The notes below the pieces were generated by a model, which saw nothing but the letters and a program-made list of their open reading frames with translations, did not search any database and was not told the DNA's origin. A DNA stretch of 64,000 bases from IMG/VR virus record IMGVR_UViG_3300037804_000366; one strand, 5' to 3'. Positions 11,576 through 63,887 of this stretch are shown piece after piece; positions within the stretch are counted from its first letter, which is position 1; the number at the start of each line of letters is the position of its first letter. The position numbers and the translations under genes are program-made. The DNA comes from an uncultured virus (IMG/VR IMGVR_UViG_3300037804_000366) (taxonomy: Duplodnaviria > Heunggongvirae > Uroviricota > Caudoviricetes).

Positions 11576-11579
11576 TGCG

Positions 11580-15675: not shown

Positions 15676-15676
15676 T

Positions 15677-18051: not shown

Positions 18052-18053
18052 AT

Positions 18054-19078: not shown

Positions 19079-19446
19079 GCAAACAACCAGCGAAGCCGGG
19101 GGGCGTAGCAGTACCGGCCGCACTAATAGCTGCGGCTCTTGGTACAATGCTGGTTACTGGTACTTTAGGGAGTAGTATACGAAAAAGGAAGAAAGAAAAA
19201 AGGAATCACGATCTATCAAAAAGGATATTGATGTCCGAATACCCAAACCTAGCGCCATACCTTATCATGCTTGACATGAGGGAAGCGAAAAAATACAACT
19301 ATAGAAGTGAGAGAAAGAGCGCCCTACGAGTCTGTGGAAACTGCCAGCACTTTTTTGGTGGACAATGTAGGCAATTCGATATTAACGTACCAAATTCAGG
19401 AAAAACAAACATATGCGACGTTCATGAAATAAGATCGCGTAGTTGA
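19075..19446 (+). CDS. Membrane-anchored protein with 4-Cys HiPIP-like C-terminal motif
   Basis: Hydrophobic N-terminus; Y..CGNCQHF....CRQF...V......C. Confidence 0.5.
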   Translation: MSKQPAKPGGVAVPAALIAAALGTMLVTGTLGSSIRKRKKEKRNHDLSKRILMSEYPNLAPYLIMLDMREAKKYNYRSERKSALRVCGNCQHFFGGQCRQFDINVPNSGKTNICDVHEIRSRS

Positions 19447-19463
19447 CAACAAATTATATTATT

Positions 19464-41011: not shown

Positions 41012-42694
41012 ATGAAGGGCATGTCAAAATACATTCGTGATTTTTTCACGAAGAAAGGCCGAATGGGTCAACTGTCAGATAAGGGTTTGGAAAAGTATCC
41101 ATTGCATCCTTACTACACGGGTGGCGGAGGAGCTACTGGATTGCCCGGCGCATTAGCAGTGGGAGGAGGCTTTGCGGTTGGTAAAGTAGCTTTTAACAAG
41201 GATGATGATGAGGCTACGATTAGGGAAAAATGGAAACAGTTGGGCAATAAGAAAAATCAATCAGGAGAATATACGCATCCCGATATTGCTCAATTATACA
41301 AGCAAGATGTAGATAACAAAATAAAGACTTCTGAGATTATTAAACAATCGCAAAAAGAAAGCGCGCGTTTAGAGGCTCAAAAAGACCCCGGCTTTACGGA
41401 GTCAGAAATTGAGCAAGAACAAAGAAAGGATACAGGAACTACTGGACACAGAGGTACAGAAAAAGACTTAAGCACTACAAGAAAAGCACGAATAGATAGA
41501 AAATTCGGAAAGTTTGCCAGCACTAAGAAACTTCAAGATTTTAAAGAAAGTATAGATGACAAATTTCGCGTATATTACCACAATGGAAAAGTAGAGAAAA
41601 TATATGATGACAGCGAAGAGGATGAAAATGGAAACCCAGCCGAAGCACCCAAGTGGATAGTTAAAAGGTATAGAACTGCAGTTAATATGCAGAACAGCAG
41701 AGATAAAAGTGGAGTTGGTGACGTTTCAGGTTCTACAGACTCTAAAGGCGCATGGGGGGGTTTTACTCATTCGGAAAAAGCTCAAGTTACAAGACTTGTA
41801 GATGCCGCATTAGGGCCAAAGGCTAGTGCGAAAGATAGAGAGTTGGCTGCGAAAAGGTTTGGGCCTTCCGTAAAACAAATGATAGAGAATGGGAATTCTC
41901 CAGAAGACATTGATAGAGCCATTGGCAATATGGTAGAGCGGGAAGACCTTGATCGTAATAGACGAGAAACTGCAGCCAAGTCGGCTTTAACTAAGAAAAA
42001 AACTAAGGCTGGCAAAAGAGAAAATCGTAATGCTGGATTAGTACAAACAGGAGTTGATGCTGATGGAAATCCAACAAGAACGAATGTATCGGATCAAGAA
42101 GCAGAAGCGGATGCAAAAGCAGAAGCGGTAAACAAAAACAGTATTGCCGTGGAGCAAGCTAGAAGACAAAGAGAAGCTGGCATACAAGGAGTCGTGCAGG
42201 GAGGTGGAGGAAGTCCCACCGTAAAGCAATTAAAAGAAGAGTTAAAAGCGAAAGGTTTGCGAGTATCTGGGAAGAAAGAAGACTTAGTAGAGCGACTGAG
42301 AAAAGCACAGGGTGGTCAAGGTGGTCAAGGTACGGACGATAAAGATCCTACAGGGGGTAAGCCAATAAAAATGGGATTGCCGTACTTGAATGAAATATTT
42401 GAATTTGATAAAAAAGAAAAGAAAAGAAAGATAATAGGGACAACTGCTGGCGCGACCATAGGGGGCTTGGCTGCGGCAAGTAGGCATAGAGATTGGCGCT
42501 TATATGATGCTCTTGAAAAGCTTGAAGGTAGACAACTCGCGCCTAAGCATAAGTTAAAAGCAAATTTAAGATTACATGGAGGAAGTCTAGCAAGATTGGG
42601 TGGAGGAGCTTTAATTGGTTATGGGATAGCCCATGCGATTAATAAAAAGAAAAGAAAAGATGCAATACGATCAATACAGAGAAGCAAGAGCTAA
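41012..42694 (+). CDS. EF-tag family protein with SAP domain and Gly zippers
   Basis: TVKQLKEELKAKGLRVSGKKEDLVERL; YLNEIFEF. Confidence 0.7.
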   Translation: MKGMSKYIRDFFTKKGRMGQLSDKGLEKYPLHPYYTGGGGATGLPGALAVGGGFAVGKVAFNKDDDEATIREKWKQLGNKKNQSGEYTHPDIAQLYKQDVDNKIKTSEIIKQSQKESARLEAQKDPGFTESEIEQEQRKDTGTTGHRGTEKDLSTTRKARIDRKFGKFASTKKLQDFKESIDDKFRVYYHNGKVEKIYDDSEEDENGNPAEAPKWIVKRYRTAVNMQNSRDKSGVGDVSGSTDSKGAWGGFTHSEKAQVTRLVDAALGPKASAKDRELAAKRFGPSVKQMIENGNSPEDIDRAIGNMVEREDLDRNRRETAAKSALTKKKTKAGKRENRNAGLVQTGVDADGNPTRTNVSDQEAEADAKAEAVNKNSIAVEQARRQREAGIQGVVQGGGGSPTVKQLKEELKAKGLRVSGKKEDLVERLRKAQGGQGGQGTDDKDPTGGKPIKMGLPYLNEIFEFDKKEKKRKIIGTTAGATIGGLAAASRHRDWRLYDALEKLEGRQLAPKHKLKANLRLHGGSLARLGGGALIGYGIAHAINKKKRKDAIRSIQRSKS

Positions 42695-43349
42695 TTACAA
42701 TAAAGCTAAGTTAATCGTAGCAAAAGCCCGAAAGGGCGGGGAGGCTGCGAAGGATGTAGCTGAAGCTGTAAAAGGTGTTAGGGACAACAAGCGCAAAAAG
42801 CGTTTCTGGGAAAAGAAGCCATTTCAAAACGCAGTCGCGGCTGCGGCAATAATGGCGGGAACTGGCGCGACTCTTAAATATGGCCCGAAGCTTGCGGAAA
42901 AAGTTCTTTTAGCAAATAGAGCTAGAAACATACACTTGCGTAAAATGGGTCATAATATAATTGATCTTGATGATTTTAACGTAGATATAGAGCTAGATGA
43001 GTTAGATGATGCTCGTGAAGCTGGATGGCAGGTACGCAATCCTACGAGTAGTAGCATTAAAATACAGAGAAGCGGTAGGCGCAAACGAGAACGCAGGAAG
43101 AAAACTACTTCAGAAACCGTAGGCTTTAAAAATAAACTAATCGCTGGCTTGGGGGCTGGATTAGTAGGTACTGCAGGCTTGGGAGCGTATTTAGCTATGC
43201 TGACTAGAAAGCGTGGAAAGCTCCTGAAAGCTTCTGGAACAAAAACTAACCTTAAACCAACTTTGACAAAAGGGGAAAAAGCACTTCTTGAGCAAGCTGA
43301 AGGCAGGGGTAAATTTGTCCCCTTCAAGAAAGATGGAACAGACGACTAA
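42660..43349 (+). CDS. Basic protein of same family (acidic linker IIDLDDF..IELDELDD)
   Basis: K/R-rich with two Gly/Ala-rich helices. Confidence 0.65.
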   Translation: MQYDQYREARANYNKAKLIVAKARKGGEAAKDVAEAVKGVRDNKRKKRFWEKKPFQNAVAAAAIMAGTGATLKYGPKLAEKVLLANRARNIHLRKMGHNIIDLDDFNVDIELDELDDAREAGWQVRNPTSSSIKIQRSGRRKRERRKKTTSETVGFKNKLIAGLGAGLVGTAGLGAYLAMLTRKRGKLLKASGTKTNLKPTLTKGEKALLEQAEGRGKFVPFKKDGTDD

Positions 43350-44056
43350 TGAGCCGCAAACCTACAGATAAAGAAAGAAAAGAGATACGCAATATCGCTA
43401 TTGGCGGAACTGCGGCTGCAACACTCGGCGCTGGTGGAGCGTATGTAACGTCTGCAAGAAATAAGCAAAAAGAAATCGCGGCTGATAAAATGGTAAAAGA
43501 ATACCACCGCAGATTGCAGACTGGTCATGATAGTTCAGAGTTTAAGCCACCAAAGCACATACAGGGAAAACGCAAGGGGCAACCATATGGAAAGGATTCA
43601 GATACGTATAAAAATGCACATGAAGCATGGAAGCGTGGAAAGTTTACGAGAGATGGTAAAATAAAAAAAGTCATGGAAGTTCCGGGCTTAAAAAAGAAGT
43701 ATTCAAGGTATGCGAAAAAAGTAGCCAAGCTCACGGGTACTAAATGGGTAGAAAAGCCGAGAATGGGTATAGATGAAAAGACCTTGGAAAAAGTACAAGT
43801 AGGACAAAGAGGAAGACAGTTTAAAGCTAAAGGACTTGTGAGCCTATTAGGACTTTTCCCACGAGCGAGCTTGCGTAATAAGAATTTAATAGGTAAATTG
43901 GCTTTGAAGTCTCAAAAATATACTGGAAAGAGTCGAGGGGGTAGAGGGACAGTTGGTGGACTAACTTATTCTGGAAAAAAACAAAATCTTAGTAAAAAAG
44001 ATCGCGTAGGCGACCCCACGGGTAAATGGAAAGAGTGGGAAGGAAATAGGAACTAA
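43349..44056 (+). CDS. Basic protein with Gly-rich helix
   Basis: IAIGGTAAATLGAGGAYV. Confidence 0.65.
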   Translation: MSRKPTDKERKEIRNIAIGGTAAATLGAGGAYVTSARNKQKEIAADKMVKEYHRRLQTGHDSSEFKPPKHIQGKRKGQPYGKDSDTYKNAHEAWKRGKFTRDGKIKKVMEVPGLKKKYSRYAKKVAKLTGTKWVEKPRMGIDEKTLEKVQVGQRGRQFKAKGLVSLLGLFPRASLRNKNLIGKLALKSQKYTGKSRGGRGTVGGLTYSGKKQNLSKKDRVGDPTGKWKEWEGNRN

Positions 44057-47339: not shown

Positions 47340-48012
47340 AATTAATGACCCATATCATACCGACCCAAGGCGGATGACTGAACAGATACTTTGCGAGGTA
47401 TTAAACAACTATGCAAAGGGGGCTGTGTTTCACCCATCAAATGCGGATACCCAACAAGAGCTTCCATTTGGATCTGTGTATGTGGAAGAATCTTTGCCTA
47501 CCATTGGAGATAGATCTCCGCGAGCATACTTGATGAGCATTAAGGTCGTTTACGTTAGTCATATAAATGAGGTTGGCTCGCAGCTCCATTCTGAGAACGT
47601 TTCAAGAATACAGGATGGGCTAAACACGGTTGCAAATAAACAGTACACGGAATCATACTTGCGCCAATATGATCTTCATAGTGGCAAGTGTAAAGTAATG
47701 GCAAGAACAGGACATTTGTATTTTGAGGACTTAGATGTCACGAGAGTCGCGAAGGGAGACTATTGCGAACTTACTATAAATAAAGATTTGAAAGAAGTAG
47801 CTAGAGTTGACCATATAAGCAAAACCCCAAGCAAGAAGTATTTAGCAACCGACAAAACATACAGTCGAGCGAAGAATAACGTGCCGTGTAGAATATACAG
47901 AGACATCCTAAAAATTGACGGAATTCACGTAGAAAGCATAGGCTCTTCGCAAGAAGATTTTTCATATGGTGATGTATTCAGTATAAGGGCTGGAGTCATT
48001 ACTTGCTTATAG
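47329..48012 (+). CDS. Tail terminator/completion-like protein
   Basis: LPFGSVYVEE pattern, position before tube genes. Confidence 0.45.
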   Translation: MTAEINDPYHTDPRRMTEQILCEVLNNYAKGAVFHPSNADTQQELPFGSVYVEESLPTIGDRSPRAYLMSIKVVYVSHINEVGSQLHSENVSRIQDGLNTVANKQYTESYLRQYDLHSGKCKVMARTGHLYFEDLDVTRVAKGDYCELTINKDLKEVARVDHISKTPSKKYLATDKTYSRAKNNVPCRIYRDILKIDGIHVESIGSSQEDFSYGDVFSIRAGVITCL

Positions 48013-48032
48013 TTGACAAGGAAAACATAGAT

Positions 48033-48425
48033 ATGCCATTAACTAAACTTACAGGAGACCCGGATTACGTATTCGGAATTGATGACGAGAGCCAAGAAGT
48101 GGAGGCTATAATCGTAGAATCCTACTCTAAGGAGACTACGGTAGAGTTTGAAGCCGAAGCTAAGGATGACACGGGAAACACGGCATGTGTTGTTCGTGGG
48201 CCACTAAAGCACACTTTTAATTTCTCAGGCTATTGTAAGTCTGGAAAGTTGCTTACCGCTTTTAGTGGTAGTAATTGCAAGGTGTCCTTTAAGGATGCGG
48301 AGCTTGGTAATATAGACGAAGCTTTTGTAGAAAAGTTCGGAATCAATGCTTCTAATACGGACTTTAAAAAAGCAGAACTAACCGCTGTGTTTTACCCAGA
48401 CGGTAAGGTTTGTTGCGCAGATTAA
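48033..48425 (+). CDS. Tail tube-like protein 1
   Basis: YVFGID..AEAKD..G..SGY..SNTDFKK; TTGACA-N14. Confidence 0.6.
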   Translation: MPLTKLTGDPDYVFGIDDESQEVEAIIVESYSKETTVEFEAEAKDDTGNTACVVRGPLKHTFNFSGYCKSGKLLTAFSGSNCKVSFKDAELGNIDEAFVEKFGINASNTDFKKAELTAVFYPDGKVCCAD

Positions 48426-48443
48426 TACACGGAGGAATTTAAA

Positions 48444-48791
48444 ATGGCTAGTACTTGTAATGGATATATATATGGGGTTGATGGAAACATCAGCGGTATT
48501 AAGGTAGAAACCCAAAACGCTGACACCGGACCGCAGTATGTCGCGGAAGCGAAAGACGCGTGTGGTCGCACGAAGGCTATTAAGCTTGGTAAGCACACGG
48601 GTACTTGTACTGTAGGTGGTTACTTTTTTAAGCAGTTGCCCACGGTAAACTCAAAGGTTATTATTTCGGGTCGTACATTTTTTATCGACAAAGTTAGCAA
48701 GAGCCAGAGCAACACCGAATTTCAAAAATGTGAAATGACTGGAAAGTTCTGGGAAGGCGTTGATACAATAGGCCAGACTAATAACTGTTAA
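48444..48791 (+). CDS. Tail tube-like protein 2 (paralogue)
   Basis: YIYGVD..AEAKD..G..GGY..SNTEFQK. Confidence 0.6.
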   Translation: MASTCNGYIYGVDGNISGIKVETQNADTGPQYVAEAKDACGRTKAIKLGKHTGTCTVGGYFFKQLPTVNSKVIISGRTFFIDKVSKSQSNTEFQKCEMTGKFWEGVDTIGQTNNC

Positions 48792-48795
48792 TGAT

Positions 48796-49407
48796 GTGGC
48801 TCTTGATGAAAAGTTCGCAGAGGCTTTTGTTAATCTTGAGAGTCATCGAGTATTAGGATACAAGCTACAGCCATTTTCTATATGGCATAGGTTTTTATTG
48901 GAGTTTTTTGATTCTCCAATAATTACAGAAACAAACGACTCAGGCGGAATCGAGGACGTATTAAAGGCAATACAGATATGTCGCGTCACATACCCCCACT
49001 ACCCAAAGAAACAAGGGCTTTTAAGTAAGCTTGCGATTCTTTGTCGCAGCTGGCAAATAGAAATCCAAGCAAATCGGTTTATGGCGTATATTGAAGACTA
49101 TGCGTCGTTTCCAGAATTGTGGGACAAAGAAGATTCTGATGGGAAAACCTCTTCTGCTCCTGAATCTCTATCAATGGCTGTACAGCTAATGGAGTTAGGG
49201 TTTTCTGAAAAAGAAGCATGGGACATGCCTATAGGTAAAGCTTTTTGGTATTCCTCAATCTCCGCTTTGTTGAAGGGAGCTGAAATAGACTTCGTTACGG
49301 CAGAAGAACGTCAAATGCAGGAAAATAAAGACCAGATCCTTAAGGACATGGCTGAAGCGGAAAAAGCAATGAAAGCAAAAATGGCAGGACAAGCAAATGG
49401 CGTTTGA
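48796..49407 (+). CDS. Tail assembly chaperone-like protein
   Basis: LGFSEKEAWDMPIGKAFWY; precedes tape measure. Confidence 0.55.
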   Translation: MALDEKFAEAFVNLESHRVLGYKLQPFSIWHRFLLEFFDSPIITETNDSGGIEDVLKAIQICRVTYPHYPKKQGLLSKLAILCRSWQIEIQANRFMAYIEDYASFPELWDKEDSDGKTSSAPESLSMAVQLMELGFSEKEAWDMPIGKAFWYSSISALLKGAEIDFVTAEERQMQENKDQILKDMAEAEKAMKAKMAGQANGV

Positions 49408-52400
49408 TTTTAAAACAGTATTTTCAACCGCAGGAGCGGATAAACTAAAGGCCGCGTTTGCTGGTGCGCTAGAGCCAGCTATGATATTTGCTTCAACCGG
49501 AAGTAAGTCAGCCGCGATATGGGGCGGTATGAAGTCAGTTATATTAAATAACGTACTAGGCCCCATGGCCTTGCTTTCTGGAGCTGTATTAGGAGTAATA
49601 GGTGCGGTAAAACTTTTGGTTGGAAATACTGAAATGCTTCGCAAGGGGATGCAGAAGCTCAAGCAAATTGAATTTACTGAAGCTCAATTCAAAGGCTTAT
49701 TAGGAGGAGTGGAGGTCGCGCGTGAGCGCGTGGAGTCTTTATATAAGTTTGCGAATGAAACTCCATTTCAAATGGGGCAGGTAGCGGAAGCTTCTCGTAT
49801 GTTAGAGGTTTTGACGAAAGGAGCATTATCCACTACTGAAAATTTAAAGAAAATAGGTGATGCCGCAGCAACCGCAGGCGCTGATTTTAGTAATGTTTCT
49901 ATGCACGTTGGTCGTATGTATGACGGCTTACAAAGTGGAAGACCAGTAGGAGAGTCGGCCGCGAGGCTTCAAGAGCTTGGGCTTATGAGCGGTCAAGCAA
50001 GAGCCAAGATAGAGGATATGACTAAGGCAGGAAATAGCTTTAGTGAAATATGGAAAGTTGTTTCTGATGAACTTGAAAAGAATGAAGGCGGGATGAAAAC
50101 GATGTCCCAGACCATCCAAGGTCTGGAGACGACCCTTGCCGACGCGCAAGATAAAATGCAGGCAGGATTCGCGGAAGGCTTCATGGAGGCAGAAAAGGAA
50201 TCACTTGAGCGAGCAAGATCCGTAGCTATCGCACTACAAGAGCCTTTAGAGAAGCTAGGAGAATTATTTGGAGCAGTAGCTAAAGTCGGTAGTTGGGTCG
50301 CTGGTATATTTTTACGAATAGCTGGTGGGGCAAAAGGGTTAAGTACCGCCATTAACTTCGCCATTGATGCGTTTTTAATGTTCGCCGCAGCAGTCATGGC
50401 CGCACAGGTATACACTATGGTGGCTGGGCTTCTCTCATTGAAAAGCGCGTTCTTAGCTTCTTCGCAGGGGGCGATAATGGCTTCCTCTTGGAATATGGTT
50501 CATACAAAAGGTGTATGGGCTTCGATTGTTGCACTTAAAGGACAATCATTAGCAAATAAGATGGCTGGTGCATCCGCGATACTCGCGGGGGGAGCTTATA
50601 AGTTGGCTTCCGTTTTAGTTAAAAGCTTTACGGGTGCTATTGCCGCATCTTTTAAAGTAATGCTGGCAAATCCAATAACCGCAGTTATTGCTGGCTTGGC
50701 TGCGCTTGCTGTTGGGATTTGGCAAGTCGTGAGCGCATATAACAAGGAGCAAGAAGCTGGAGCTAAAGTGCGTAAAGCCACCCAAGAGATTACTGATAAA
50801 TACAAAGAGCAGGCTGCGGCAGTAACAACCGCGGCTGAAAAACTCTCTTTACTATCTTCTATGTATGAAGGGTTATCAAGTGCGTCAAAAGATTATGAAG
50901 CAGCATTAAAGGACGTCGAGGCGGGCGCGTTGTCTGGCTTACTAGGGACCGATTTCAATGAAGGTTTACAGGCTGTGCAGGGGATGGAAGACCGCATGTA
51001 TGCTATTGTTGCTCAGATGAGCAAGTTAAACCAAATGGAGAAATCGAGACTGAGGCTTTCGGAAGCTCGCCTAGCTTTAATGCAAAAGGAAGTTGAACTA
51101 AGTAAAGATTTAGCGAAGCAAGGATGGGATCAAAAAATGGCGAAGGCTAATCAAGCTGAACAAGTTTCTCTTCTCATACAAAGACAAAATGAACTTAATG
51201 AAAAAATAGCAAAGTCTTCCGTTGATAGAGAACATGAAGTAGCAAGCAAGGAGTATGACGATGAAATTGGGGGCGACAAAGAAGTTAGAAAAGCCGAGAT
51301 TGAAATAGAATTCGGCAAAAAAATAGCCGAACAGCGTGCGCTATCTGATCAAATGAGAGAGGGTAAAGATCCGGCAAACGTTGTTGAAGACTGGATGGCT
51401 ACCGATGCTGGGCGTCAGGCCATGAGCGCAGCTGCGAAGGAAGACCCTGACCGGTATGTTCGTGGGAACTTGGAACGGTACGGCAATGCGCTTTTAACGA
51501 ACATGACCGGTGGCTTAAATGTGGCGTGGAGCGACACGGAAAGTACCGGAATGGATGTTTTCAAACATGATCAATTTTTACAGGATACGCTGAAAAATGA
51601 CAAACGCTTTAAGGGTGGTGGCTACAACAATGAAGCGGATTTGATTCAGCAAAAGGCCGATGCTATGGCCGCGATGGAGCGCGAATATGCTGAAGAAAAG
51701 GAACGGAAAACAGGTCTTGTAACTATAAAAAATGGACAGGTAGATTACGATACTGGAAGAACCAACCGACAAAAGGAAATGGGGCAGATCGCGGCCCTTG
51801 AAAGTACCCTACAAGCTGCGGCTCGCGGAGAGGATGAGGGTGGGATTTCAATGACTAAAAGAGATGTAAGTATTTTAGAAGACGCTAAAAAGCAATTAAA
51901 AGAAATGGTTAAAGATCATGAAGCCAATGTTAAAGAAGCCGACAATCTAGCTAATGCTATAGAAACAATTCAGGACAACCTCATGGCTGCGGCAAATTTG
52001 CGTATAATTGATACGAATGAAATAGAGGAGTTGCGAAAAGTAACTAAGGAAACCTTAAATGCTGAGAAGGAAAAAGCGGCCATTATGATGAACGCAAATA
52101 AGGCGCGAATTGAAGCTCACAACCGCTCGTACGATAAGGGCGCCGGAAAGAGCAGGCAAAGAGCGGGGGATGACTTACGCGATAAGCAAGACAGGGCTGG
52201 CTTATTACAGGCAAAAATAGATGCTGGCGGGATGAGTCCAGATGACCTAGAGGACGCCTCAAGAGAACTAAGCCAGCTTAACAGGGATATCATGACCCTA
52301 GAGGGAGTTCTAAAAACATTTGATGAAGCTGAAAAGAAAACAAAGAAGTGGATAGACGCTAATAAAAAGCTAGAAGATTCCGTGGCAAAAATGGAAAGGC

Positions 52401-53083
52401 AAGCGATCAAAACATTCAACAGGCTTAAAGAAGATCTGGAAATACTTGCCGCGAGTAATGAAATAGATTTTCGCTTTGACATAGGCGACTTAGCAGGAGC
52501 TATGGACATGATGGAAGCACTTGGTAATATGGAGGATAAGAAGTTCTTGGAGCGTAGAACTGAAACTCTTTCCAAAAAAATGGGGGACAAAGAAGCTGCA
52601 GAAATGGCGCAAAAGGAGTTGATAGAAAAGAAAAGAGCTAGAAGCGAACAGGTGCAGGGCAACGCGGCAAAAGCAAGGCGTAAACAGGACATTGCGGAGC
52701 TTGATTTAGCTGCGAGGATGGGCGATCCTAATGCCAAAAAAAAAGCCACGGCTATGAAGGATCGAGACTTCTTAGAGGCTTCATTCAGGAAGAACTTAGG
52801 AGATTCTAAAGACCCAATGGACATAAGCACAGCCAAGAGTGCGGCCTTATCCGAACTAATGACGAAAAAGGTTGGTGAAGTACCAGAGGTTAAAACAATA
52901 AGTGATAGCTTTAGAAAAATAGGAGCAGGGGGAGGCGCGTCTAGTACTGACCCGCAGATCATTCTTGCGAGGAAAAGAACTGAAGCGTTAAAAGCGCTTG
53001 CTGACCTTACGAGAGATATGAAAGCCATTCAGCTCGACACGAAGGAAGTTATTGATAATAGATTAAACTTTGACGTAAAATAA
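49397..53083 (+). CDS. Tape measure protein
   Basis: FANETPFQ..IGDAAA motif, hydrophobic middle, long helical protein. Confidence 0.9.
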   Translation: MAFDFKTVFSTAGADKLKAAFAGALEPAMIFASTGSKSAAIWGGMKSVILNNVLGPMALLSGAVLGVIGAVKLLVGNTEMLRKGMQKLKQIEFTEAQFKGLLGGVEVARERVESLYKFANETPFQMGQVAEASRMLEVLTKGALSTTENLKKIGDAAATAGADFSNVSMHVGRMYDGLQSGRPVGESAARLQELGLMSGQARAKIEDMTKAGNSFSEIWKVVSDELEKNEGGMKTMSQTIQGLETTLADAQDKMQAGFAEGFMEAEKESLERARSVAIALQEPLEKLGELFGAVAKVGSWVAGIFLRIAGGAKGLSTAINFAIDAFLMFAAAVMAAQVYTMVAGLLSLKSAFLASSQGAIMASSWNMVHTKGVWASIVALKGQSLANKMAGASAILAGGAYKLASVLVKSFTGAIAASFKVMLANPITAVIAGLAALAVGIWQVVSAYNKEQEAGAKVRKATQEITDKYKEQAAAVTTAAEKLSLLSSMYEGLSSASKDYEAALKDVEAGALSGLLGTDFNEGLQAVQGMEDRMYAIVAQMSKLNQMEKSRLRLSEARLALMQKEVELSKDLAKQGWDQKMAKANQAEQVSLLIQRQNELNEKIAKSSVDREHEVASKEYDDEIGGDKEVRKAEIEIEFGKKIAEQRALSDQMREGKDPANVVEDWMATDAGRQAMSAAAKEDPDRYVRGNLERYGNALLTNMTGGLNVAWSDTESTGMDVFKHDQFLQDTLKNDKRFKGGGYNNEADLIQQKADAMAAMEREYAEEKERKTGLVTIKNGQVDYDTGRTNRQKEMGQIAALESTLQAAARGEDEGGISMTKRDVSILEDAKKQLKEMVKDHEANVKEADNLANAIETIQDNLMAAANLRIIDTNEIEELRKVTKETLNAEKEKAAIMMNANKARIEAHNRSYDKGAGKSRQRAGDDLRDKQDRAGLLQAKIDAGGMSPDDLEDASRELSQLNRDIMTLEGVLKTFDEAEKKTKKWIDANKKLEDSVAKMERQAIKTFNRLKEDLEILAASNEIDFRFDIGDLAGAMDMMEALGNMEDKKFLERRTETLSKKMGDKEAAEMAQKELIEKKRARSEQVQGNAAKARRKQDIAELDLAARMGDPNAKKKATAMKDRDFLEASFRKNLGDSKDPMDISTAKSAALSELMTKKVGEVPEVKTISDSFRKIGAGGGASSTDPQIILARKRTEALKALADLTRDMKAIQLDTKEVIDNRLNFDVK

Positions 53084-53085
53084 TT

Positions 53086-53928
53086 ATGGGCTGTTTAAAT
53101 TACTTACTAGAACAACCGGGTGCTACTATTACCATGAATCCTCATGGTATGGCAGGTGGCACTCTTTCGTATAAATGTGACCGCAGGGCTTCTTGCATGC
53201 TTGCAAGTAGTAAAATGATAGGTCCGGGTCATGTTCATCCTAGAGAACGTTGGTTGTATTGCAGTAATGTAGTACACACGAATGATGGAGCATATGATAT
53301 TATAAACGCCACCTACGAAGGACTGTCTCAAGACGCTATGCCAACTGGTGGATATTCATTGGGTACTATACAGACGGCAATCCCACTACACGTAAACTAT
53401 AAGGATAATCGTCCGGGCAGTTTTGCCGGCCCGATTGGAGAGGGTACTAGCCCCAATACGTACGGCAGGCTCTTGGATGAAGATGGCGCGTTTAAGGCAT
53501 TCGGCCCACTCCCTGATGGTTTAATGAATCGTCCGCAGCCTGCCCCAGATGATGGAGCTGCAGAGTTAGAGGGAGTAGAGAATTTTCTACAAGCTGGTCA
53601 GTTGACTTTTAAATATGGCGCTCTACATAAAGAGAAATTACATGCGAGGTGTGGCCCAAAAAAAGAACAAGCGCAGTCTGGGCGTTTAGCCAAGCAACAC
53701 ATTAGTAGTGTTGGGTATGTTTCTACCCCAATATCACAATCAATCCCTTATCTTGACCCGCCTTATGAAGAAGCAAATTGGTTGTTTGTTGCTCTTAATG
53801 AAGATGTTAGAACACAAAATGGTGGGAACGTTAGATTTTTTACGACTCAACTGGAGTTTTTAGCTAGTGGGCCGGGCGGATGGAATCCATTACTTTATAA
53901 AGACGTAGGCGCTACAAGGCTTCCGTGA
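53086..53928 (+). CDS. Tail tip/distal tail-like protein
   Basis: Position after TMP; IPLHVNY, GPGGWNPLLY. Confidence 0.5.
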   Translation: MGCLNYLLEQPGATITMNPHGMAGGTLSYKCDRRASCMLASSKMIGPGHVHPRERWLYCSNVVHTNDGAYDIINATYEGLSQDAMPTGGYSLGTIQTAIPLHVNYKDNRPGSFAGPIGEGTSPNTYGRLLDEDGAFKAFGPLPDGLMNRPQPAPDDGAAELEGVENFLQAGQLTFKYGALHKEKLHARCGPKKEQAQSGRLAKQHISSVGYVSTPISQSIPYLDPPYEEANWLFVALNEDVRTQNGGNVRFFTTQLEFLASGPGGWNPLLYKDVGATRLP

Positions 53929-56435
53929 ATATAAACTTGCAGAAGCTGGACACTATTCGCACAGGTGCGAATATTTTTAATACCCTTACGGCGGATCGTA
54001 TAAATGCCATACAGGACGCTATTAAAGAGCTTTCTCGTGGTCGCAATGTAGTAGCGGGAGACAATGTACGGGTAACCCATGCAGGTGGAGCGGTCAATAT
54101 ATCAGCTACTCAAAAAAAAGACACGACGCAGTTTAGGGCAATACAAGAATATGCGTATTGCGCTAAAGACATGCAGCGACAATGCTCATATAATGGGAGA
54201 CCAGACTATCAGCCATACAGAGACTTAAAAGGCATAGAGATACCACTTCCACGACCGAATAACATATTCGACTTAAACTGCGAACCCTACCCAAACCCCC
54301 CGCTAAACGTATGGGAAAAATTAGAAAATACATACAACGTCGGTGCGGAGTTTATGGAGGACAAGGGGGATCATTTTGTTTTCACGAAGCCGGGGGTTTA
54401 TGAAATAGAATTTGAATACACGGCAATGCACAAAGCGGATGCTTGTGAATGGAATAAGAATACCCATAGTTTTGATTGTCTATTCTTTCCCGCATTGGGT
54501 AACAAGGGCACAACACCCGTATGGCTACAAGGACTTCAGCGGTGGGACTGGATACAAGGACGATATGAATGCGATGGTAAAGAACTCAGAGTTATTCATC
54601 CTGCGAATGCATATGTACAGTATTCAATACATGGAAAGCAACGCATACCTAATGACAATAATGTCTTACTAGAGTTTTATGATAAAGAGAAGAAAGTAGG
54701 ACTACGAGGAGATGCGGGAATAAAGTACAAAGGAGATTGTAGTTATATCCCAACCACGCCTGATTCTTGTGCGTTCGTGCGAGATGAGGGAACACCAGAA
54801 GGTGGAGGTTGTTCAGCTAGTTCGGTCGTAATTCAATACTGTTCTTTGTCTTCATCAGATAAACACATAAATTTCAATACTTATAAATACAGTTTAACAT
54901 CCGTACCGCACATCTGCTCATCTTCATACACTTGGGATTCACTATATGACCCCTGTGACACTACCTCTATTCAAGACTGGGATATCGACACGATCTACAA
55001 TCCCGGCGACTGGGTAAATCGCAATGGTGAGTTTTTCATAAATACCCAGACTACCAATACGACTGAGCCATTACCAGATGATGATATATTTTGGAGTAAG
55101 CAAGACCCATGCGCTAACAATTACGATGTGGCTGTTTGCTCTGGGTCTTCTGTTACTACTCTTTATTTGGATGGTAACGTTGAAGCAGATGTTACTGGAT
55201 CTATAAACGTACCAACTTGTAAGCTAAAAGGATACAAGACTTGTCCCGGCGCTACTGTTTGGTCGTTCACTCAATTTAACAATCAAAGGGTACACTACGA
55301 TCAGAATAAAATTACTAAGATAGGTGACAATGAAACCGTCATTCATGGCGAGCTAGAGTTTGATGTTCCAGTCTCACTCACGAAGACTACAGCGAGTTGC
55401 GTCCATATAGTTAATGATTATGTGATAAAAAGCTCTATTGACAGCCAGATTTCATTTGCTAATAATTTGTCGGAAACACCATATAATTGTGGCGGATATG
55501 AAGGTAAGATTGACGTAGATATAACGATACCCACGGCTCTAGTTCCTACGACCAAAACCGTACACTATCAGTACCCACGTTTTTCGACCACAACAGTAAG
55601 CTGCGGTGGTGCAACGGTAGATGTTGATATCGAAGATCCTACGATTAATATTCCAACTACAATAGCGAGCACACAACGTGATACTGTTAAGAAGTGGACG
55701 GCGGGAACTGATACGGTTAACTATGACACGGTAAATAACGATGGCAACGTAGTCATACAAAAGTACTCGCAGTCTACTAATACGTGCGCTGGTGGTACTT
55801 TGTCTGGACTCGCTTTTGAAGCGACTCTTGATATTCCCGTTGATGTTAAGGAAGGCGTGAAGCAGATCATCGGTCAGGTATATATGCCTGAGTACACGAC
55901 TGAATCAGAAAGCGTCATAACCGCTTGTCCTACGTTTTCTAGTGGAGACGTACTTTATAGCGTTACCCCAGTTAAGGGAACGGTTACGGATGCCGCGACT
56001 GGTACTATTAATCTTAATGTTCCGACTTCACTTGCCCCAACGACTACGACCGAAAATATTACTATTGCAGTACCAAGGATACAAAAGACCACTATTACTG
56101 TGCCACAAGTCCATAGCACCATAACTGAAAGCGTAACTACGGGGATAACGGAATCTGCCGCGAGCGCCCTTACTGGTCTTGACGTCACGACGTCAACTCA
56201 AGAAGAAGCGTTCGGTGGTACTATCTCTGTAAATGTTCCAACATCGCTTGATGTAGGAGAAACTGTAGTAGACGTAGAAATTGCTACGGATAAGATCACC
56301 ACGGAAAGTGTCGTATTGGTAACGAATGTTACTGGAACTAATACGACTCTCAGCATTCCTACGATAACCTCCGGCATGACTAGCGCGAGTGATTGTTGCT
56401 ACTGTGACTGTGATGAAGAGGAGAGTGGAGATTAA
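53925..56435 (+). CDS. Tail fibre/spike chain A (Thr/Val/Cys-rich, CBM5/12-like insert)
   Basis: LTADRINAIQDAI anchor; WDIDTIYNPGDWVNRNG..EP..W; long beta-strand-like shaft. Confidence 0.7.
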   Translation: MNINLQKLDTIRTGANIFNTLTADRINAIQDAIKELSRGRNVVAGDNVRVTHAGGAVNISATQKKDTTQFRAIQEYAYCAKDMQRQCSYNGRPDYQPYRDLKGIEIPLPRPNNIFDLNCEPYPNPPLNVWEKLENTYNVGAEFMEDKGDHFVFTKPGVYEIEFEYTAMHKADACEWNKNTHSFDCLFFPALGNKGTTPVWLQGLQRWDWIQGRYECDGKELRVIHPANAYVQYSIHGKQRIPNDNNVLLEFYDKEKKVGLRGDAGIKYKGDCSYIPTTPDSCAFVRDEGTPEGGGCSASSVVIQYCSLSSSDKHINFNTYKYSLTSVPHICSSSYTWDSLYDPCDTTSIQDWDIDTIYNPGDWVNRNGEFFINTQTTNTTEPLPDDDIFWSKQDPCANNYDVAVCSGSSVTTLYLDGNVEADVTGSINVPTCKLKGYKTCPGATVWSFTQFNNQRVHYDQNKITKIGDNETVIHGELEFDVPVSLTKTTASCVHIVNDYVIKSSIDSQISFANNLSETPYNCGGYEGKIDVDITIPTALVPTTKTVHYQYPRFSTTTVSCGGATVDVDIEDPTINIPTTIASTQRDTVKKWTAGTDTVNYDTVNNDGNVVIQKYSQSTNTCAGGTLSGLAFEATLDIPVDVKEGVKQIIGQVYMPEYTTESESVITACPTFSSGDVLYSVTPVKGTVTDAATGTINLNVPTSLAPTTTTENITIAVPRIQKTTITVPQVHSTITESVTTGITESAASALTGLDVTTSTQEEAFGGTISVNVPTSLDVGETVVDVEIATDKITTESVVLVTNVTGTNTTLSIPTITSGMTSASDCCYCDCDEEESGD

Positions 56436-56437
56436 TT

Positions 56438-58390
56438 ATGGCTGACCCATGTTGCATTACAATTTCCGTACCTACTTATTCAGTAGTAGGTAGTTCGCAG
56501 ACTGCTCTTGGCGACATTGAACTTACTACAGAAACTAAGTATTTAGCGGTAGTAGATGGTACGGAATCACAAACCGTTCAAGTTACAATACCCACATACG
56601 ATCTTGCGTTTGGGCCACCACAAACGTTTGATTTTACTGGCACGATAGACGTCAATACGGTTACTGGGGTAACGGCAACTACTGGTACATTTCTTACTGA
56701 TGTCGGGGTTACCAATAAAACAATAAATATTCCTGTATTAGGGACGCAAAATTTAGATATAGCGCAAGTATATGGTACGACCAATCAGACGGTAGCAATA
56801 TCACATACCGAATACGAGATTGCCACTTCCCCAATCGACATAGATTGGTCTACTGACATAAACATTGAATGCGTAACGGATATAACGCCAGCAACGCAAT
56901 CAGTTCTAACAGGGATAAAAGCACCTTGCGAATCTAAAACCCTTAACTATTTAAGCTCCACGGGTAGCGTGCTACCACAAGATATCACTTTAGATGTTCC
57001 TACTTACACTTTAGAAACAGAAGCAAAAGTAATTAAAGGAGCTATTGATTCGGTCACGATACCTCCATGCAATATTCCCGTTTTGTTACCTGATGGAAAT
57101 TATACGGTACCATCATACTCTCCCGTCACTTCTAGCTTTAGCTATGCGAGCCTGCAGGATGCTGGCAATGCGACCCTATACGACTACACCCTTAGCGGTA
57201 ATACTCCAATTACCATAGAAGGCGCTACAGCCACTATACCCCCCTGCGACATACAGGTTCTAAGGTTTTGGTATAATCAACAAGGGAGCATACAAGTTCC
57301 CTCTTTTGATATAACTACATCCACGCAGACAGTTGAAGCGGATATAGTTATTCCTAGTTGTACCGTATACTCATATTCGTGGGAGACCGACTATGCTTAC
57401 CTGAAGGATTACTGGATTAAGTCTACTCCACGCGCCCTTGTATGTAAGTTTAATGACTATGACTTAGAGACCGAAAACAAGAAGCTGGATTATACGGCCA
57501 AGATAAAAGTACCGATTTATAAGACCGACGTAGAAAATAAACACTTTGATTACAACGTTCCAAATTTTGAAAAAATCGTAATACAAGATTGCCAAGTTCC
57601 AATAATAGAAGAAGTTAATGCATACGCGAAAATTGCAGGAAAGATTAAGGTTAATCTTGGTAAGATTGATGAAACAATAACCACGCCCCTGATCAGTTGC
57701 TCTACTATTCCAGTGCCAATTTATAGTACGGCAACACACACTATCGACTTTTCTTGCTCTACCAATAGTTACAGTTTGTCTGAAACAGTAGTACCAAACT
57801 CGATTACAGTTCCATCATATTCGCAAAGCTGTAGTTCTGTGTCATTAAAGAGCTATGCGAAAGCATATTACAGTTCGTCTTCTATACCGTCTCGTACGCT
57901 TGTTCCTTGTAGTCCGGGAGGATATCAAAAACAGCCACCTACACCAACTTGGACAAATACAGGGAGGGCTAAACTTCGGCTTGATGTAGCTTATAGGAAA
58001 GGTGTAGCCAAGAAACTTGAGAAAGAGGGAAAAAATGTACCTGATGGATGGCACATGGATGATCCGGGATGTCAGTTGTGTATATTCGTACGCGATTATG
58101 ATACTGGCGCTATACTGGAAGAGCTAGACAACTCAATAGACCTGTGGGGCTGGGTAACTGCAAAAGATGCGGAAAATTCTTTTAATGACAAATTTGATCC
58201 GTTTGGCAATAAGGTTCGTGGAGATTCAAGATATGAACAAAATCCAATTGATCTTATAAAAGCCAATTTACGGATTGAGCGACACCATCAATTGGAAAAC
58301 GTGAAGTTTATTGACACCCCGCTTAAGTCAGGACACTTGAGCTACGAACAATTGAAACCGCATATGCCTTATCACAAGATTAAGTACTAG
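56438..58390 (+). CDS. Tail fibre/spike chain B (Thr/Ile/Cys-rich)
   Basis: Cys spacing mirrors chain A; globular-looking C-terminus. Confidence 0.65.
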   Translation: MADPCCITISVPTYSVVGSSQTALGDIELTTETKYLAVVDGTESQTVQVTIPTYDLAFGPPQTFDFTGTIDVNTVTGVTATTGTFLTDVGVTNKTINIPVLGTQNLDIAQVYGTTNQTVAISHTEYEIATSPIDIDWSTDINIECVTDITPATQSVLTGIKAPCESKTLNYLSSTGSVLPQDITLDVPTYTLETEAKVIKGAIDSVTIPPCNIPVLLPDGNYTVPSYSPVTSSFSYASLQDAGNATLYDYTLSGNTPITIEGATATIPPCDIQVLRFWYNQQGSIQVPSFDITTSTQTVEADIVIPSCTVYSYSWETDYAYLKDYWIKSTPRALVCKFNDYDLETENKKLDYTAKIKVPIYKTDVENKHFDYNVPNFEKIVIQDCQVPIIEEVNAYAKIAGKIKVNLGKIDETITTPLISCSTIPVPIYSTATHTIDFSCSTNSYSLSETVVPNSITVPSYSQSCSSVSLKSYAKAYYSSSSIPSRTLVPCSPGGYQKQPPTPTWTNTGRAKLRLDVAYRKGVAKKLEKEGKNVPDGWHMDDPGCQLCIFVRDYDTGAILEELDNSIDLWGWVTAKDAENSFNDKFDPFGNKVRGDSRYEQNPIDLIKANLRIERHHQLENVKFIDTPLKSGHLSYEQLKPHMPYHKIKY

Positions 58391-58653
58391 TATGTTACGG
58401 TCTCAGGATCTATTCCATCCTTTTTACAAATTAGCATTAATTGGTTTCTTATTTTCTTGAGAGCTTTCCATTCTATTTGCCTTATCCTTTCTCTGGTGAG
58501 ACCGGCGATGTTGGATATCTCTTCAAGAGTCCACTCTTTTTGAGGACAGTTTTCTTCCGTCCATAGCACGGCCGCTCTTATCCGTTCGTCGGCATCAGGG
58601 TACTGCGATTTTATGTCTGGGACGTCAGGGCAATCTATTGATGTCGCGTTCAA
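58387..58653 (-). CDS. Stand-alone sigma70 region 4 HTH protein
   Basis: WTLEEISNIAGLTRERIRQIEWKALKKIR vs RpoD 4.2 TLEEVG....VTRERIRQIEAKALRKLR. Confidence 0.85.
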   Translation of the reverse strand: MNATSIDCPDVPDIKSQYPDADERIRAAVLWTEENCPQKEWTLEEISNIAGLTRERIRQIEWKALKKIRNQLMLICKKDGIDPETVTY

Positions 58654-59332
58654 CTTTCCTGAAGACCCTTTCTTTTACTTCTTCTTCCACGATAGATTTA
58701 ACTTCATCTCCGTGTTGTTCTATTAGCCCAGTCGCATGCAGCCCCATGACTAGCACATAATAACCAGACTGCGTGATTTGTAAATCAAGATTGCCGATGT
58801 ACCTTACATATTCATCCACGATGGATGAATTATTGACCATTGAAAGAGTCAACCCCTCTCCGTGGTTTCCCTTGAAAAAGGTTGGAAACTTTAACTTCCC
58901 GCCACTTATAAAGCAGATTAAGCTTTGCCCTCCCTTATCGCTGGTTTTTATTTCTTTCGTAGGCTCAAGAAACCCACCCTGCATTGGATTGCATTCTGAC
59001 AAAAAGCGTCCGTCATCTATGGCAATGTTCATAAATGCCATCTTGCCTTCAAACTGAATTAGGTGATTTTTGATCCCTTCATTAAAAAGAACCCCCTCCA
59101 TTGCGAAAACAAAAGGATCTTCGGCATGCTTGGCTATAAAGTCCAGCTTTCCTTCGTATCCACTTTCAAAATGAAAACTACAAAAGCCGGCATAGCTTTC
59201 CAAGAGTCGGGCTTCTTGTTGAAATGGGTCGCTTGTACCTATTATTATCTCACAACCCTCTATGCAGTCTCTCGCGGAGTTTGCGGTTGACCAGACTCTT
59301 TCGCGATTCTCTCCCCATATTAAAACTTTCAC
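58625..59332 (-). CDS. Hypothetical protein, possibly degenerate GT-A glycosyltransferase
   Basis: GTG start just after upstream stop; weak GT2-like pattern. Confidence 0.4.
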   Translation of the reverse strand: MKVLIWGENRERVWSTANSARDCIEGCEIIIGTSDPFQQEARLLESYAGFCSFHFESGYEGKLDFIAKHAEDPFVFAMEGVLFNEGIKNHLIQFEGKMAFMNIAIDDGRFLSECNPMQGGFLEPTKEIKTSDKGGQSLICFISGGKLKFPTFFKGNHGEGLTLSMVNNSSIVDEYVRYIGNLDLQITQSGYYVLVMGLHATGLIEQHGDEVKSIVEEEVKERVFRKVERDINRLP

Positions 59333-59333
59333 T

Positions 59334-59879
59334 TTAGCTTTCCTCCTCAAGTTTCTGCAGTTCCAGTCTGAGTGCTGCCATTTTCTTTGCTCTCTCTGGG
59401 TCTTCTGGCGCAGGGATTGCGCCCACTTGCTGATCAACGATATGGGATTTTTTAATTTCTTTACCGAACTTAAATACAACATGATGATAGTCTTCTACTA
59501 GGTTTTGCTCGATAACTAATTCGTTATCTTTCGACTCGAAAATTATAAGATGAGACTCCTTGGGGTAAATCCTACCAACGGTATAGTTTGCGATACCACC
59601 CAAAGCTGGCGCTAGTTTCGGAGTATAAATTCCAATTATGCCATCATACTTAAGGGTCGCGGCTTGCCCTTTTGGAACTTTAACTGCTGTGCATTCCGCA
59701 TCACCGAAGGGTAGGGCGTTGTTCATTTCATAAAGAGGAGCTTCCATGTAAGTCTCATACTTCCCCCACGCGTCGAGCCTTTCAAGTATAGGTGGGGTAA
59801 TGCTCACAAGCCCCTGTGCGAAAAATGGGCTGTAATTGAAAAAATTGAAATCAATTATTTTCTCAAAACTGTCATTCAT
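59334..59879 (-). CDS. Hypothetical protein
   Basis: 181-aa ORF in operon. Confidence 0.6.
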   Translation of the reverse strand: MNDSFEKIIDFNFFNYSPFFAQGLVSITPPILERLDAWGKYETYMEAPLYEMNNALPFGDAECTAVKVPKGQAATLKYDGIIGIYTPKLAPALGGIANYTVGRIYPKESHLIIFESKDNELVIEQNLVEDYHHVVFKFGKEIKKSHIVDQQVGAIPAPEDPERAKKMAALRLELQKLEEES

Positions 59880-60852
59880 ATCTGTTCTTGGTTATGTTTT
59901 CGATTATTTGTATTACTTCTTTTGGCGTAGTGTCTTCCATACACCTAGATATAAGAAGATTTGAATCTCCACTAGGAGAACTAATTTTGCGACCAAGGTC
60001 AACCCTATCTTCACAAATAGCTAACTCGTCTAGCTTTTTTCCTTCTTCTATTTCTTGCTCGCAAAAAGTCTCCGTAGATTTTGTTTTCCAGCAAGCACCC
60101 ATAGAACAACATTTATACATTCCCACTTTGCTTAAATAAAAGTGATTGTCATAACCCTCCCAGCTAGTCTGCTCACGACCACCAGCTAAAACAATTGCGG
60201 GTATTAGCCCACCGCGTGATCCCATCATGTTTCCAGTTAAATGCATCAAGAAGCTAACTGGCGTAATTACGCCCATTGCTTTTTTTGCTAACAACATCAA
60301 ATGCCTTAGAGTGGTCTTCCCTACTAAATTCGTAACACCCTTGAGGTCAGGATGGTAATGCCCCGCACCACCGACTTGTAAAAACTTTATTGCACCCGCA
60401 AAATGATCTACTACTTTTTGATAGTGATGGGGATTCCACCATTTAGCCGTGAAGTCGTGTTTCCCTCCCGCATTCAACAACCAATAGTCACCATGTCCTG
60501 TGTCCCATTTCTGCTCTACATCTGAAAAGTAAATATCAGGCCCATGTCCAGATATTGGTATATCTATCCCTATTGACTCGCCTATATGATCCGTAAATGC
60601 TCTGGAAAAATGAAACTTACGTTGGTGGCTCTTGTTTACCTCATGTTTGTAGTCCGAATCTATTACGAAATCAGCATACTCTTCTTTAACTGATGGGCTT
60701 AAGTTAATATTGTTCTCCCATAACTCTGGGCAACTCGTATGAACGTTGATCTTCCAGCTAGGCTTGAAGGTCTTTAGGTCACGAACCGCGGCCGTTAGCA
60801 TTAATATATCGCCGGGGCTTTGAAACTGCTTAAGTAGGACACTCGTTGACAT
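59872..60852 (-). CDS. GT9 (ADP-heptose:LPS heptosyltransferase-like) glycosyltransferase
   Basis: PGDILMLTAAVRDLK, KWW, NLVGKTTLR, SFLMHL. Confidence 0.8.
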   Translation of the reverse strand: MSTSVLLKQFQSPGDILMLTAAVRDLKTFKPSWKINVHTSCPELWENNINLSPSVKEEYADFVIDSDYKHEVNKSHQRKFHFSRAFTDHIGESIGIDIPISGHGPDIYFSDVEQKWDTGHGDYWLLNAGGKHDFTAKWWNPHHYQKVVDHFAGAIKFLQVGGAGHYHPDLKGVTNLVGKTTLRHLMLLAKKAMGVITPVSFLMHLTGNMMGSRGGLIPAIVLAGGREQTSWEGYDNHFYLSKVGMYKCCSMGACWKTKSTETFCEQEIEEGKKLDELAICEDRVDLGRKISSPSGDSNLLISRCMEDTTPKEVIQIIENITKNRYE

Positions 60853-63065: not shown

Positions 63066-63887
63066 ATGATCAAAAGTTTTTCTCTCGTAGGGACTCACGA
63101 GCTTAAGGAAGAGTGCCTACTATGTATATTGTCTATCAGGAGGCTGTATCCTGATGTTCCAATATTACTATTTACCGACAAAATAACACAAGATTACCTT
63201 GATCCGAGGACGGATAATGTAGTATTTGACCCATTCTGCGAACCAGAAAACCTAAAAGTCTTACTTGAGCAGTATAGTTCCGTAAGCGTATCCAATAGAT
63301 TCCATAGAGTAGATTGCATTGCAGCTAAAATGCACTGCCTGAGAAAAGCCATAGAGCTGTTTGGTAACACGATGTTCGTGGATAGCGACATAGTGTTCCT
63401 TGAGAAGATAGATGACGCCTTACGATCAGATGTGGTTCTGTCGCCGCACTATCATGGAGACAACAGGCTGGGGCAGTGTGATAAGTATGGCGTATATAAC
63501 GCTGGGTACGTTTATACCGACAACAACAATGCGGCCGATGTTTGGGATATTATATATCGCGAAAGGTCATCATTTTTTGAGCAACAAGGCATGATGCATT
63601 TCCATGAATACATGGATACTTATAATTTTGACAGGACGCATAACATTGGATTTTGGAGATGCAGGGTTTACTATAAAGAGTTTCCTAAACATCATGGGCC
63701 ATTTATTGAAGTTCCTGATGGCTTGTTTGATGGAGCGAAGTCCTTACACGTTCACATGACGAAGTTTTATGAAGCCAGAGCGGATTCTGGACTAACCGCA
63801 GTGTATGATCAATGGATGGCCGAGTGCGATAAAGTCATAAAGAAGGAAGCCAAAGGCCTTATTGAAAAGTGGGAGAAGGTAAAGTGA
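63066..63887 (+). CDS. GT-A glycosyltransferase (GT8/GT77-like)
   Basis: FVDSDIVF DxD, YNAGYV, EQ. Confidence 0.75.
   Translation: MIKSFSLVGTHELKEECLLCILSIRRLYPDVPILLFTDKITQDYLDPRTDNVVFDPFCEPENLKVLLEQYSSVSVSNRFHRVDCIAAKMHCLRKAIELFGNTMFVDSDIVFLEKIDDALRSDVVLSPHYHGDNRLGQCDKYGVYNAGYVYTDNNNAADVWDIIYRERSSFFEQQGMMHFHEYMDTYNFDRTHNIGFWRCRVYYKEFPKHHGPFIEVPDGLFDGAKSLHVHMTKFYEARADSGLTAVYDQWMAECDKVIKKEAKGLIEKWEKVK

Follow-up and report, generated by a model that had tools for sequence, protein, structure and literature searches.

Adjacent tail genes with mirrored cysteine spacing as probable halves of one fold-back phage fibre

How might two neighbouring tail genes, whose cysteines are spaced as mirror images of each other, contribute to a single fibre? 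This question is raised by genes A (53925..56435, 836 amino acids (aa)) and B (56438..58390, 650 aa), which lie on the plus strand of a 64,000-nucleotide (nt) stretch of DNA, called the window here, from an uncultured Caudoviricetes virus (IMG/VR record IMGVR_UViG_3300037804_000366). An earlier note, made from the letters of the sequence, had proposed that chain A runs out and chain B runs back as one antiparallel hairpin, split between the genes at its tip and stapled by inter-chain disulfides. The analysis described here leads to much the same picture: that A and B form the two halves of a single fold-back tail fibre is the best explanation overall and is probable, and the narrower claim that the two chains pair physically in antiparallel orientation is very likely. 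The parts of this reading that the sequences themselves show are the mirrored cysteine pairs (rungs), the matched length changes, and the paired gain and loss of cysteines.

Read backwards from C824, the cysteine intervals of A are 156, 47, 61, 38, 30, 52, 35, 22 (9+13), 25, and 24 residues, where the interval of 35 skips C432, that of 22 skips a DPC...DPC stretch (344-396), and that of 24 skips C296. Read forwards from C6, the intervals of B are 158 (skipping C145), 47, 59, 38, 28, 49, 36, 19, 25, and 26. Eleven rungs are obtained, whose A and B positions sum to 830, 832, 832, 830, 830, 828, 825, and 826, and to 771, 771, and 773 past the 53-residue insert in A; the shaft cysteines A432, A296, and B145 are left over. 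The computed positions agree exactly with the hand counts of the earlier note, including its two unmatched cysteines in A and one in B. In a lenient shuffle test with free skipping, the observed chain of 9 was reached by 4 of 600 interval shuffles; when skips were penalised and the insert was kept in, the observed score of 6 was reached by 1 of 3000, so that the anti-correlation holds up under the permutation check that had been proposed for it. The parallel orientation scores 2 with penalised skips, against 6 for the antiparallel one, which is chance level. When the insert coordinates were removed, which was decided on with the data already in view, the observed score of 8 was reached by 0 of 2000 shuffles. 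Both shafts are rich in Thr, Val, and Ile (Thr 18% and 14%), with a hydrophobic periodicity near 2.0-2.4, in keeping with the strand-like character previously ascribed to them, and HxH motifs number 0 in either.

The relatives of the two genes form a small family, with six A clusters and, among 1.84 billion representatives, seven B-like ones and one false hit; one more B was recovered via cluster look-up. The false hit, P0011 (6907 aa), matches the B profile with an E-value (E) of 5e-20 over 16 stretches, and was rejected as a fish AHNAK repeat look-alike that shares a hydrophobic-x-hydrophobic-Pro pattern. No fused A+B protein is present among the 8 matches of the B profile to these representatives, and no B relative was found in genome contigs. 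The loci used were L001, L002, and the truncated L004, whereas three fragments (P0009, P0012, and P0013) were left out of pairing, and P0009 fitted no A well. L001 is ~90% identical to the window and adds little.

The decisive test is whether the two shafts change length together, and in L002 (42-47% identity, both genes on one contig) they do. Compared with the window over nine segments, the A/B changes are +1/+2, 0/0, -1/+1, 0/0 four times, 0/-1, and +36/+36; one and the same segment between rungs is 36 residues longer in both genes, and in the other eight the changes in A and B lie within 2 of each other. The rungs in the lengthened segment (371/447, 335/483, and 322/496) all sum to 818; compared with the window, L002 has both added and lost rungs in pairs. 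L002 lacks both partners of rung A306/B465, and the unmatched A432 and B145 are both absent from it as well; its eight consecutive rungs without skips were reached by 0 of 3000 shuffles.

A naturally short pair, P0016 (448 aa) and P0010 (345 aa), behaves similarly. Each comes from one Logan contig, and the two are probably neighbours, as the contig measures 7125 bases in either case. Their shafts comprise 153 and 156 residues, five of five shaft rungs sum to 472, 473, 473, 473, and 474, and a second CC/CC lies at sum 473. The truncated L004 A and the orphan P0008 share deletions of -34/-34 and -11/-10 and have both lost rung 440/385, and their mirror score was reached by 0 of 2000 shuffles. 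P0007, combined with the orphan P0023, gives 12 rungs with sums of 809-816 (0 of 2000 shuffles), and these run on without a jump because P0007, the A chain of this pair, lacks the insert. Homologues thus bear out the compensating insertions and deletions (indels) that the earlier note had suggested looking for (+36/+36 in L002; 153/156 in the short pair), and the sole unmatched length change is the looped-out insert of A. Together with spacing that beats the shuffles, these joint changes uphold the proposal that A runs out and B runs back, antiparallel and split at the tip. In population data from four runs, with patchy coverage, no indels are listed.

Modelling of the complex lends weak support to A:B pairing. 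A665-830 and B3-167, segments with cysteines just near their ends plus B145, were modelled in three copies apiece and scored 0.34, against 0.00 for the best of three controls, with partner pLDDT (predicted local distance difference test) of at least 60 and a contact agreement between runs of at least 72%. Among solved complexes the mark for this score is attained in 116 of 157, and among mismatches in 2 of 215; at or below 0.60 it is attained by only 18 solved complexes and both mismatches, and the 3+3 job differs from the calibration set. When the partner was replaced, pLDDT fell from 60-65 to 26-29 for A and from 61-65 to 35 for B, as mutual folding would give. The complex model called for in the earlier note answers only in part, in that it weakly supports pairing of the chains and shows neither their register nor their stoichiometry.

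A possible unsplit form of the fibre is found in a syntenic module in L009 and L013, with a tube gene of 41% identity (E 4e-28), a hub of 33% (E 2e-25), and downstream genes that look similar. At L009:5989-12120, one gene of 2043 aa fills the A/B slot behind two hub-like genes, and its product shares one base motif with A weakly (E 6.5e-4, probability 27%). The Gly and Thr/Val/Ile profiles of this protein mirror about residue 1100-1110 (r 0.93 and 0.65), and when charge is compared over the full length, the best mirror point lies at another place. Its CGPPC turn sits between two arms: the one before it is Gly-rich, 166 residues long, and holds 36 acidic residues, and the one after it is 147 residues long and holds 28 basic ones; acidic Gly-X-Y thus runs out and basic Gly-Gly-X runs back, flanked on both sides by Thr/Val/Ile shafts. 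The gene is possibly an unsplit form of A+B and, by analogy, supports the out-and-back topology.

Several observations weigh against the fold-back reading. In A, the invariant C296 lacks a counterpart on the B strand. A register independent of cysteine has not been established: the cross-strand hydrophobic correlation is flat, and the proline-motif offset is marginal in the window (5 of 11, reached by 42 of 1000 shuffles) and in the short pair (2 of 2, 15 of 1000), and at chance in L002 and in P0007/P0023. Equal contig size is all that links the members of the short pair, and their mirror score was reached by 11 of 2000 shuffles; L004/P0008 and P0007/P0023 come from different records and were paired because they match, and adjacency on DNA is seen for two distinct pairs only (window/L001 and L002). 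The mirror score of the window A is higher against the B of L002 (9) than against its own partner (8). Common descent accounts for the sharing of the distal rungs, which makes the pairs non-independent; it is for this reason that matched indels, and not repeated rungs, carry the argument. Under the strict mirror test, the cysteines of the L009 protein score just 3, as shuffled sequences typically do, and the likeness of this protein to the domain of B is not significant. The 3+3 pass is weak; 3:3 alone was tried, it supplies no contacts, and neither register nor stoichiometry is seen in it.

In a rival explanation, A and B are independent homotrimers whose lengths match for some other reason, such as equal reach, and whose cysteines join like chains. 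Most phage fibres are homotrimeric (PMC12143355, in the portion available), and A296 and the non-conserved A432 and B145 lack a cross partner, as independent trimers would allow. Nevertheless, this explanation is very improbable, as it leaves the reverse order, the segment-wise equal indels, and the paired gain and loss of cysteines unexplained; in addition, B lacks an N-terminal anchor and begins with CC, and the parallel orientation scores no better than chance.

The organisation of the two genes, which were delimited as open reading frames (ORFs) with homologues (40-92% identity for A), fits a fold-back fibre in which A supplies the tail anchor, a globular base domain, and the outgoing strand, and B supplies the returning strand and a C-terminal base domain. 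All parts lie on the plus strand. The N-terminal segment of A (residues 1-65, 53925..54119) is common to otherwise different tail-tip proteins encoded after a hub gene; it occurs by itself in L005, L009, and L010 (98% by hhalign, E 1e-13, against the L009 protein), and this gene position suggests that it anchors the chain to the tail. It is followed by a conserved beta-rich base domain (66-281, 54120..54767), for which the alignment shows C119, C174, and C272 to be invariant, and by the proximal outgoing shaft (282-343, 54768..54953), which carries rungs C282, C306, and C331 as well as C296. Beyond the insert (344-396, 54954..55112), the distal outgoing shaft (397-823, 55113..56393) carries rungs C405, C440, C492, C522, C560, C621, and C668, in addition to the unmatched, non-conserved C432. 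In the tip (56394..56435), C824 and C825 are conserved in the alignment and C827 and C829 are not, and a short acidic tail ends the chain. B begins with the tip CC and the returning shaft (5-491, 56450..57910; rungs C6, C164, C211, C270, C308, C336, C385, C421, C440, C465, and C491, with C145 unmatched and not conserved), and ends with a conserved C-terminal globular domain (492-650, 57911..58387), which is defined by alignment and has a low-confidence model. No domain is present at the fibre tip, where A ends with CC and a few acidic residues and B begins with CC at once; B has no N-terminal anchor domain, and its globular domain lies at the C-terminal end, which maps to the base.

The split into two genes is real. 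The gap is 2 nt in the window, just as the earlier note had it, the same stop and restart occur in L001 (2 nt) and L002 (1 nt), and the junction is bridged gap-free by contigs in three of four sequencing runs. The B frame is open just 7 codons upstream of its start. A programmed frameshift joining A and B was considered and rejected, as no slippery site is present and the gap differs between loci. The codons for the acidic tail of A carry a purine-rich, Shine-Dalgarno-like run directly before B, which may serve as the ribosome site of B and couple its translation to that of A; this arrangement would give equal amounts of both chains. No whole-protein family for A or B exists in Pfam or PHROGs; the A profile found PDB sequences at E above 1 only, B had no match among annotated phages, and an ESM Atlas search with B gave no usable match. 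An evident duplication relating A to B was likewise rejected (best BLASTP E 0.52).

The insert A344-396, looped out between two cysteines, resembles CBM5/12. Against Pfam CBM_5_12 (PF02839) it scores E 0.086 and 13.3 bits, under the gathering cut-off of 26.2, and matches the start of the profile; the corresponding E is 0.021 in P0006. In the B homologue P0008, where the module lies on the B strand and again matches the profile start, the cut-off is passed (E 7.5e-07, 29.5 bits). With the window copy below the cut-off, carbohydrate binding is putative only. The insert is absent from P0007 and P0016, in which the rung sums continue without a jump, and by these sequence comparisons it acts like a side module that its two bracketing cysteines close off.

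At the other end of the shaft, the last rung in register is A282/B491, which adjoins the conserved ends of the two globular domains, and the domain of B is expected to sit at the base beside that of A. A216 and B545 are both present in the window/L001 and in L004/P0008, and both absent in L002 and the short pair, which gives a small hint of a base-to-base link. Both observations favour the earlier suggestion that the globular parts of A and B meet at the base. For the base domain of A, ESM Atlas feature matches of 0.86-0.88 (<0.9) include BclA_C and C1q clusters, and a Pfam C1q match was obtained at E 0.13 in one of eight members; the domain is possibly a C1q/BclA-like, trimer-type jelly roll, which is to be taken as a lead only. 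AlphaFold2 models of the globular domains (mean pLDDT 37 for A and 41 for B) are too poor for use, and fold searches with them reached Z of at most 3.1 and 2.6, which is uninformative given the model quality.

These elements can be combined into a tentative architecture. The N-terminal segment of A would hold the chain at the tail tip, from which A would run out as an extended beta-strand of ~490 residues, and B would start at the far end and return along A in antiparallel orientation, so that its C-terminal domain lands beside the base domain of A. Eleven cross-strand cysteine pairs would lock the register, most plausibly oxidising to inter-chain disulfides after lysis; that the rungs are such disulfides is likely. 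Three A:B ribbons might then wrap into a six-stranded rope (3A:3B), as suggested by the alternation of hydrophobic residues and the possibly trimeric base, and we consider the case for this stoichiometry to be evenly balanced. Extended strand pairs rise by 0.33 nm per residue, and 485 pairs would accordingly span up to ~160 nm, or less if coiled. Because the tip is headless, first contact with a host glycan or surface filament would be made along the shaft or through the side-mounted CBM5/12-like module, and a receptor-contact role of the fibre is somewhat favoured.

Two rivals retain the antiparallel pairing and differ in how the chains are bundled or linked. In the first, A and B form 1:1 two-stranded ribbons, either three separate thin, curly ones that spring from a trimeric base or a single one, stapled by disulfides. 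The Thr content of the shafts (18% and 14%) is as for exposed strands, and a single cysteine per strand per rung needs two chains only; set against this, large hydrophobic residues alternate with a period of ~2, leaving a face to bury, and the 3+3 model was weakly accepted, although that model does not distinguish a rope from three ribbons. Such ribbons are a serious possibility, if the less favoured one. In the second, the cysteines of a 2A:2B rope coordinate metal, each level offering four thiolates to Zn or Fe, as a cysteine counterpart of the His-iron sites in the T4 needle. Virions assemble in the reducing cytoplasm, and a Pfam scan of 61 ORFs of the window revealed no thiol oxidase. The T4 needle, moreover, has axial metal sites (PMC12609058, PMC6957217, in the portions available). 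However, the two cysteines of the insert close it off, as a disulfide would, the tube-like genes upstream are also Cys-rich (3.6-4.3%), as in disulfide-linked tails, and the sole lead on oligomeric state is a trimer, which together make metal rungs unlikely.

An out-and-back topology is itself already known from the needle of T4 gp37 (D11), which doubles back into six strands carrying HxH-iron sites (PMC12609058, PMC6957217, PMC9659904, as far as the available text describes it). The A/B fibre works like this needle but is not a member of its class. The available descriptions of the T4 needle and the Bas63 tips share with it the out-and-back path, antiparallel strands, and cross-linking sites along the shaft, and the T4 trimer has six antiparallel strands. 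In contrast to the needle, A and B are two genes and not one chain turning at a head domain, and no head domain lies at their turn; the path is ~485 residues each way against ~128 in total lying between the two parts of D10 (882-1009, from the D10 limits given in the available part of PMC6957217), or ~8x longer; and single cysteines, with 0 HxH, take the place of HxH-iron. No sequence match to the gp37 needle or the D10 collar was found in Pfam and PHROGs, in PDB sequences searched with the A profile, or in annotated phages searched with B.

Disulfide-linked tails have been described for Agrobacterium phage Milano (PMC10811340), phage 7-7-1 (PMC12796354), and the siphovirus tube protein gp39 (PMC13576161). 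Inter-subunit disulfides stabilise virion parts in these cases, which indicates that phages can form them, but in the available portions of these papers the bonds join globular subunits or a parallel homotrimeric fibre, and no two-chain antiparallel ladder is mentioned. The chain-like two-protein fibre of podophage A1002, with eleven small dimers on a rope protein (PMC13730344), is likewise built from more than a single gene product, and an extended strand in it pairs with other proteins; the part of the paper available mentions no disulfides and no mirrored two-strand register. The canonical parallel homotrimeric fibre, with an N-terminal anchor and a C-terminal receptor head on one chain, does not fit A and B. 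The contrast with that type drawn in the earlier note need not extend to the base, where a trimer is likely. The main text available for the RBPseg atlas (PMC12143355) uses none of the words disulfide, antiparallel, and heterotrimer, the available portion of the CASP15 highlights (PMC10792529) contains nothing relevant, and a two-gene antiparallel Cys-laddered fibre was not found described in the literature searched, which comprised main texts and few subscription journals.

The phage that encodes A and B is tailed, as a terminase, a lambda-type portal, and a major head protein are matched upstream by Pfam or PHROG families. The head genes are followed by two small tube-like genes, a chaperone-like gene, a 1228-aa tape-measure-like gene (these four at 48003..53083, plus strand), a 280-aa hub-like gene (53086..53928, plus strand), and then A and B, the last genes of the tail module. 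These names are suggested by order and composition; the tube-like, chaperone-like, and tape-measure-like genes match no family in Pfam or PHROGs. The 280-aa gene, a probable distal-tail or hub protein by its position between the tape measure and A, also has no Pfam or PHROG family; it is kept in L001, L002, and L004 and is 33% identical to its L009 counterpart. A tape-measure-like gene is called in pieces on the L002 contig (L002:2868-6388), which may reflect either an assembly error or real breaks. The tail is likely non-contractile and siphophage-like, since no sheath gene was recognised in the window. The adjacent tube-like genes (48003-48791) are Cys-rich (3.6% and 4.3%), are also paired in L002, L005, and L013, and may specify a disulfide-linked tube of two proteins.

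At least half of the sequence words of the stretch are present in 9 of the 22 sequencing runs listed, and once the possible source is set aside, the remaining 8 runs from 7 studies are all seawater or marine metagenomes. The host was not found, with terminase relatives all below 60% identity (best ~27%). An anchor-only relative (L010:6001-6331) lies at the end of a contig from a metagenome-assembled genome of Oceaniferula, which we take to be verrucomicrobial, behind a tape-measure-like and two hub-like genes, and gives a weak hint at verrucomicrobial hosts.

Elsewhere in the window, ~12 Lys/Arg-rich, cysteine-free ORFs without family matches (11159-18443 and 41012-44056), one with a SAP domain and several (at 17611, 18054, and 18440) sharing a similar starting stretch, possibly encode internal virion or DNA-condensing proteins. 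Over residues ~436-530, the product of a 571-aa ORF distant from the tail module (19443-21158) matches PHROG entries for virion structural, baseplate, and fibre proteins. Methyltransferase and sulfotransferase matches, DUF6625, and glycosyltransferase-like ORFs (the last judged by eye) lie near the tail genes and the window ends (3-2545, 58625-60852, and 63066-63887), and their products may modify the virion or host glycans.

Most long phage fibres known are parallel homotrimers, and a fold-back needle has so far been described just as a short tip. The pair A and B may represent a fibre class not yet described, a proposition that we place midway between doubt and acceptance: a headless, heteromeric, disulfide-laddered beta-filament of two products zipped head to tail, tunable in length (~150-525 strand pairs, ~50-175 nm), with swappable side modules on either strand and a single-chain relative bearing a Gly-rich acidic/basic hairpin extension, and evolving like an RNA stem across two genes. 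Such genes must hold ~490 residues in register, which would explain the equal insertions and deletions in both. The reading provides residue-level predictions in the form of 11 named A-B cross-links, and the naturally short pair (448 + 345 aa) is of a size that suits structural study; a protein rod locked by disulfides and adjustable in length would also be of interest as a nanomaterial. If true, fibre atlases would gain an architecture that is heteromeric and covalently closed, and that they would otherwise miss because single chains are modelled there as homotrimers.

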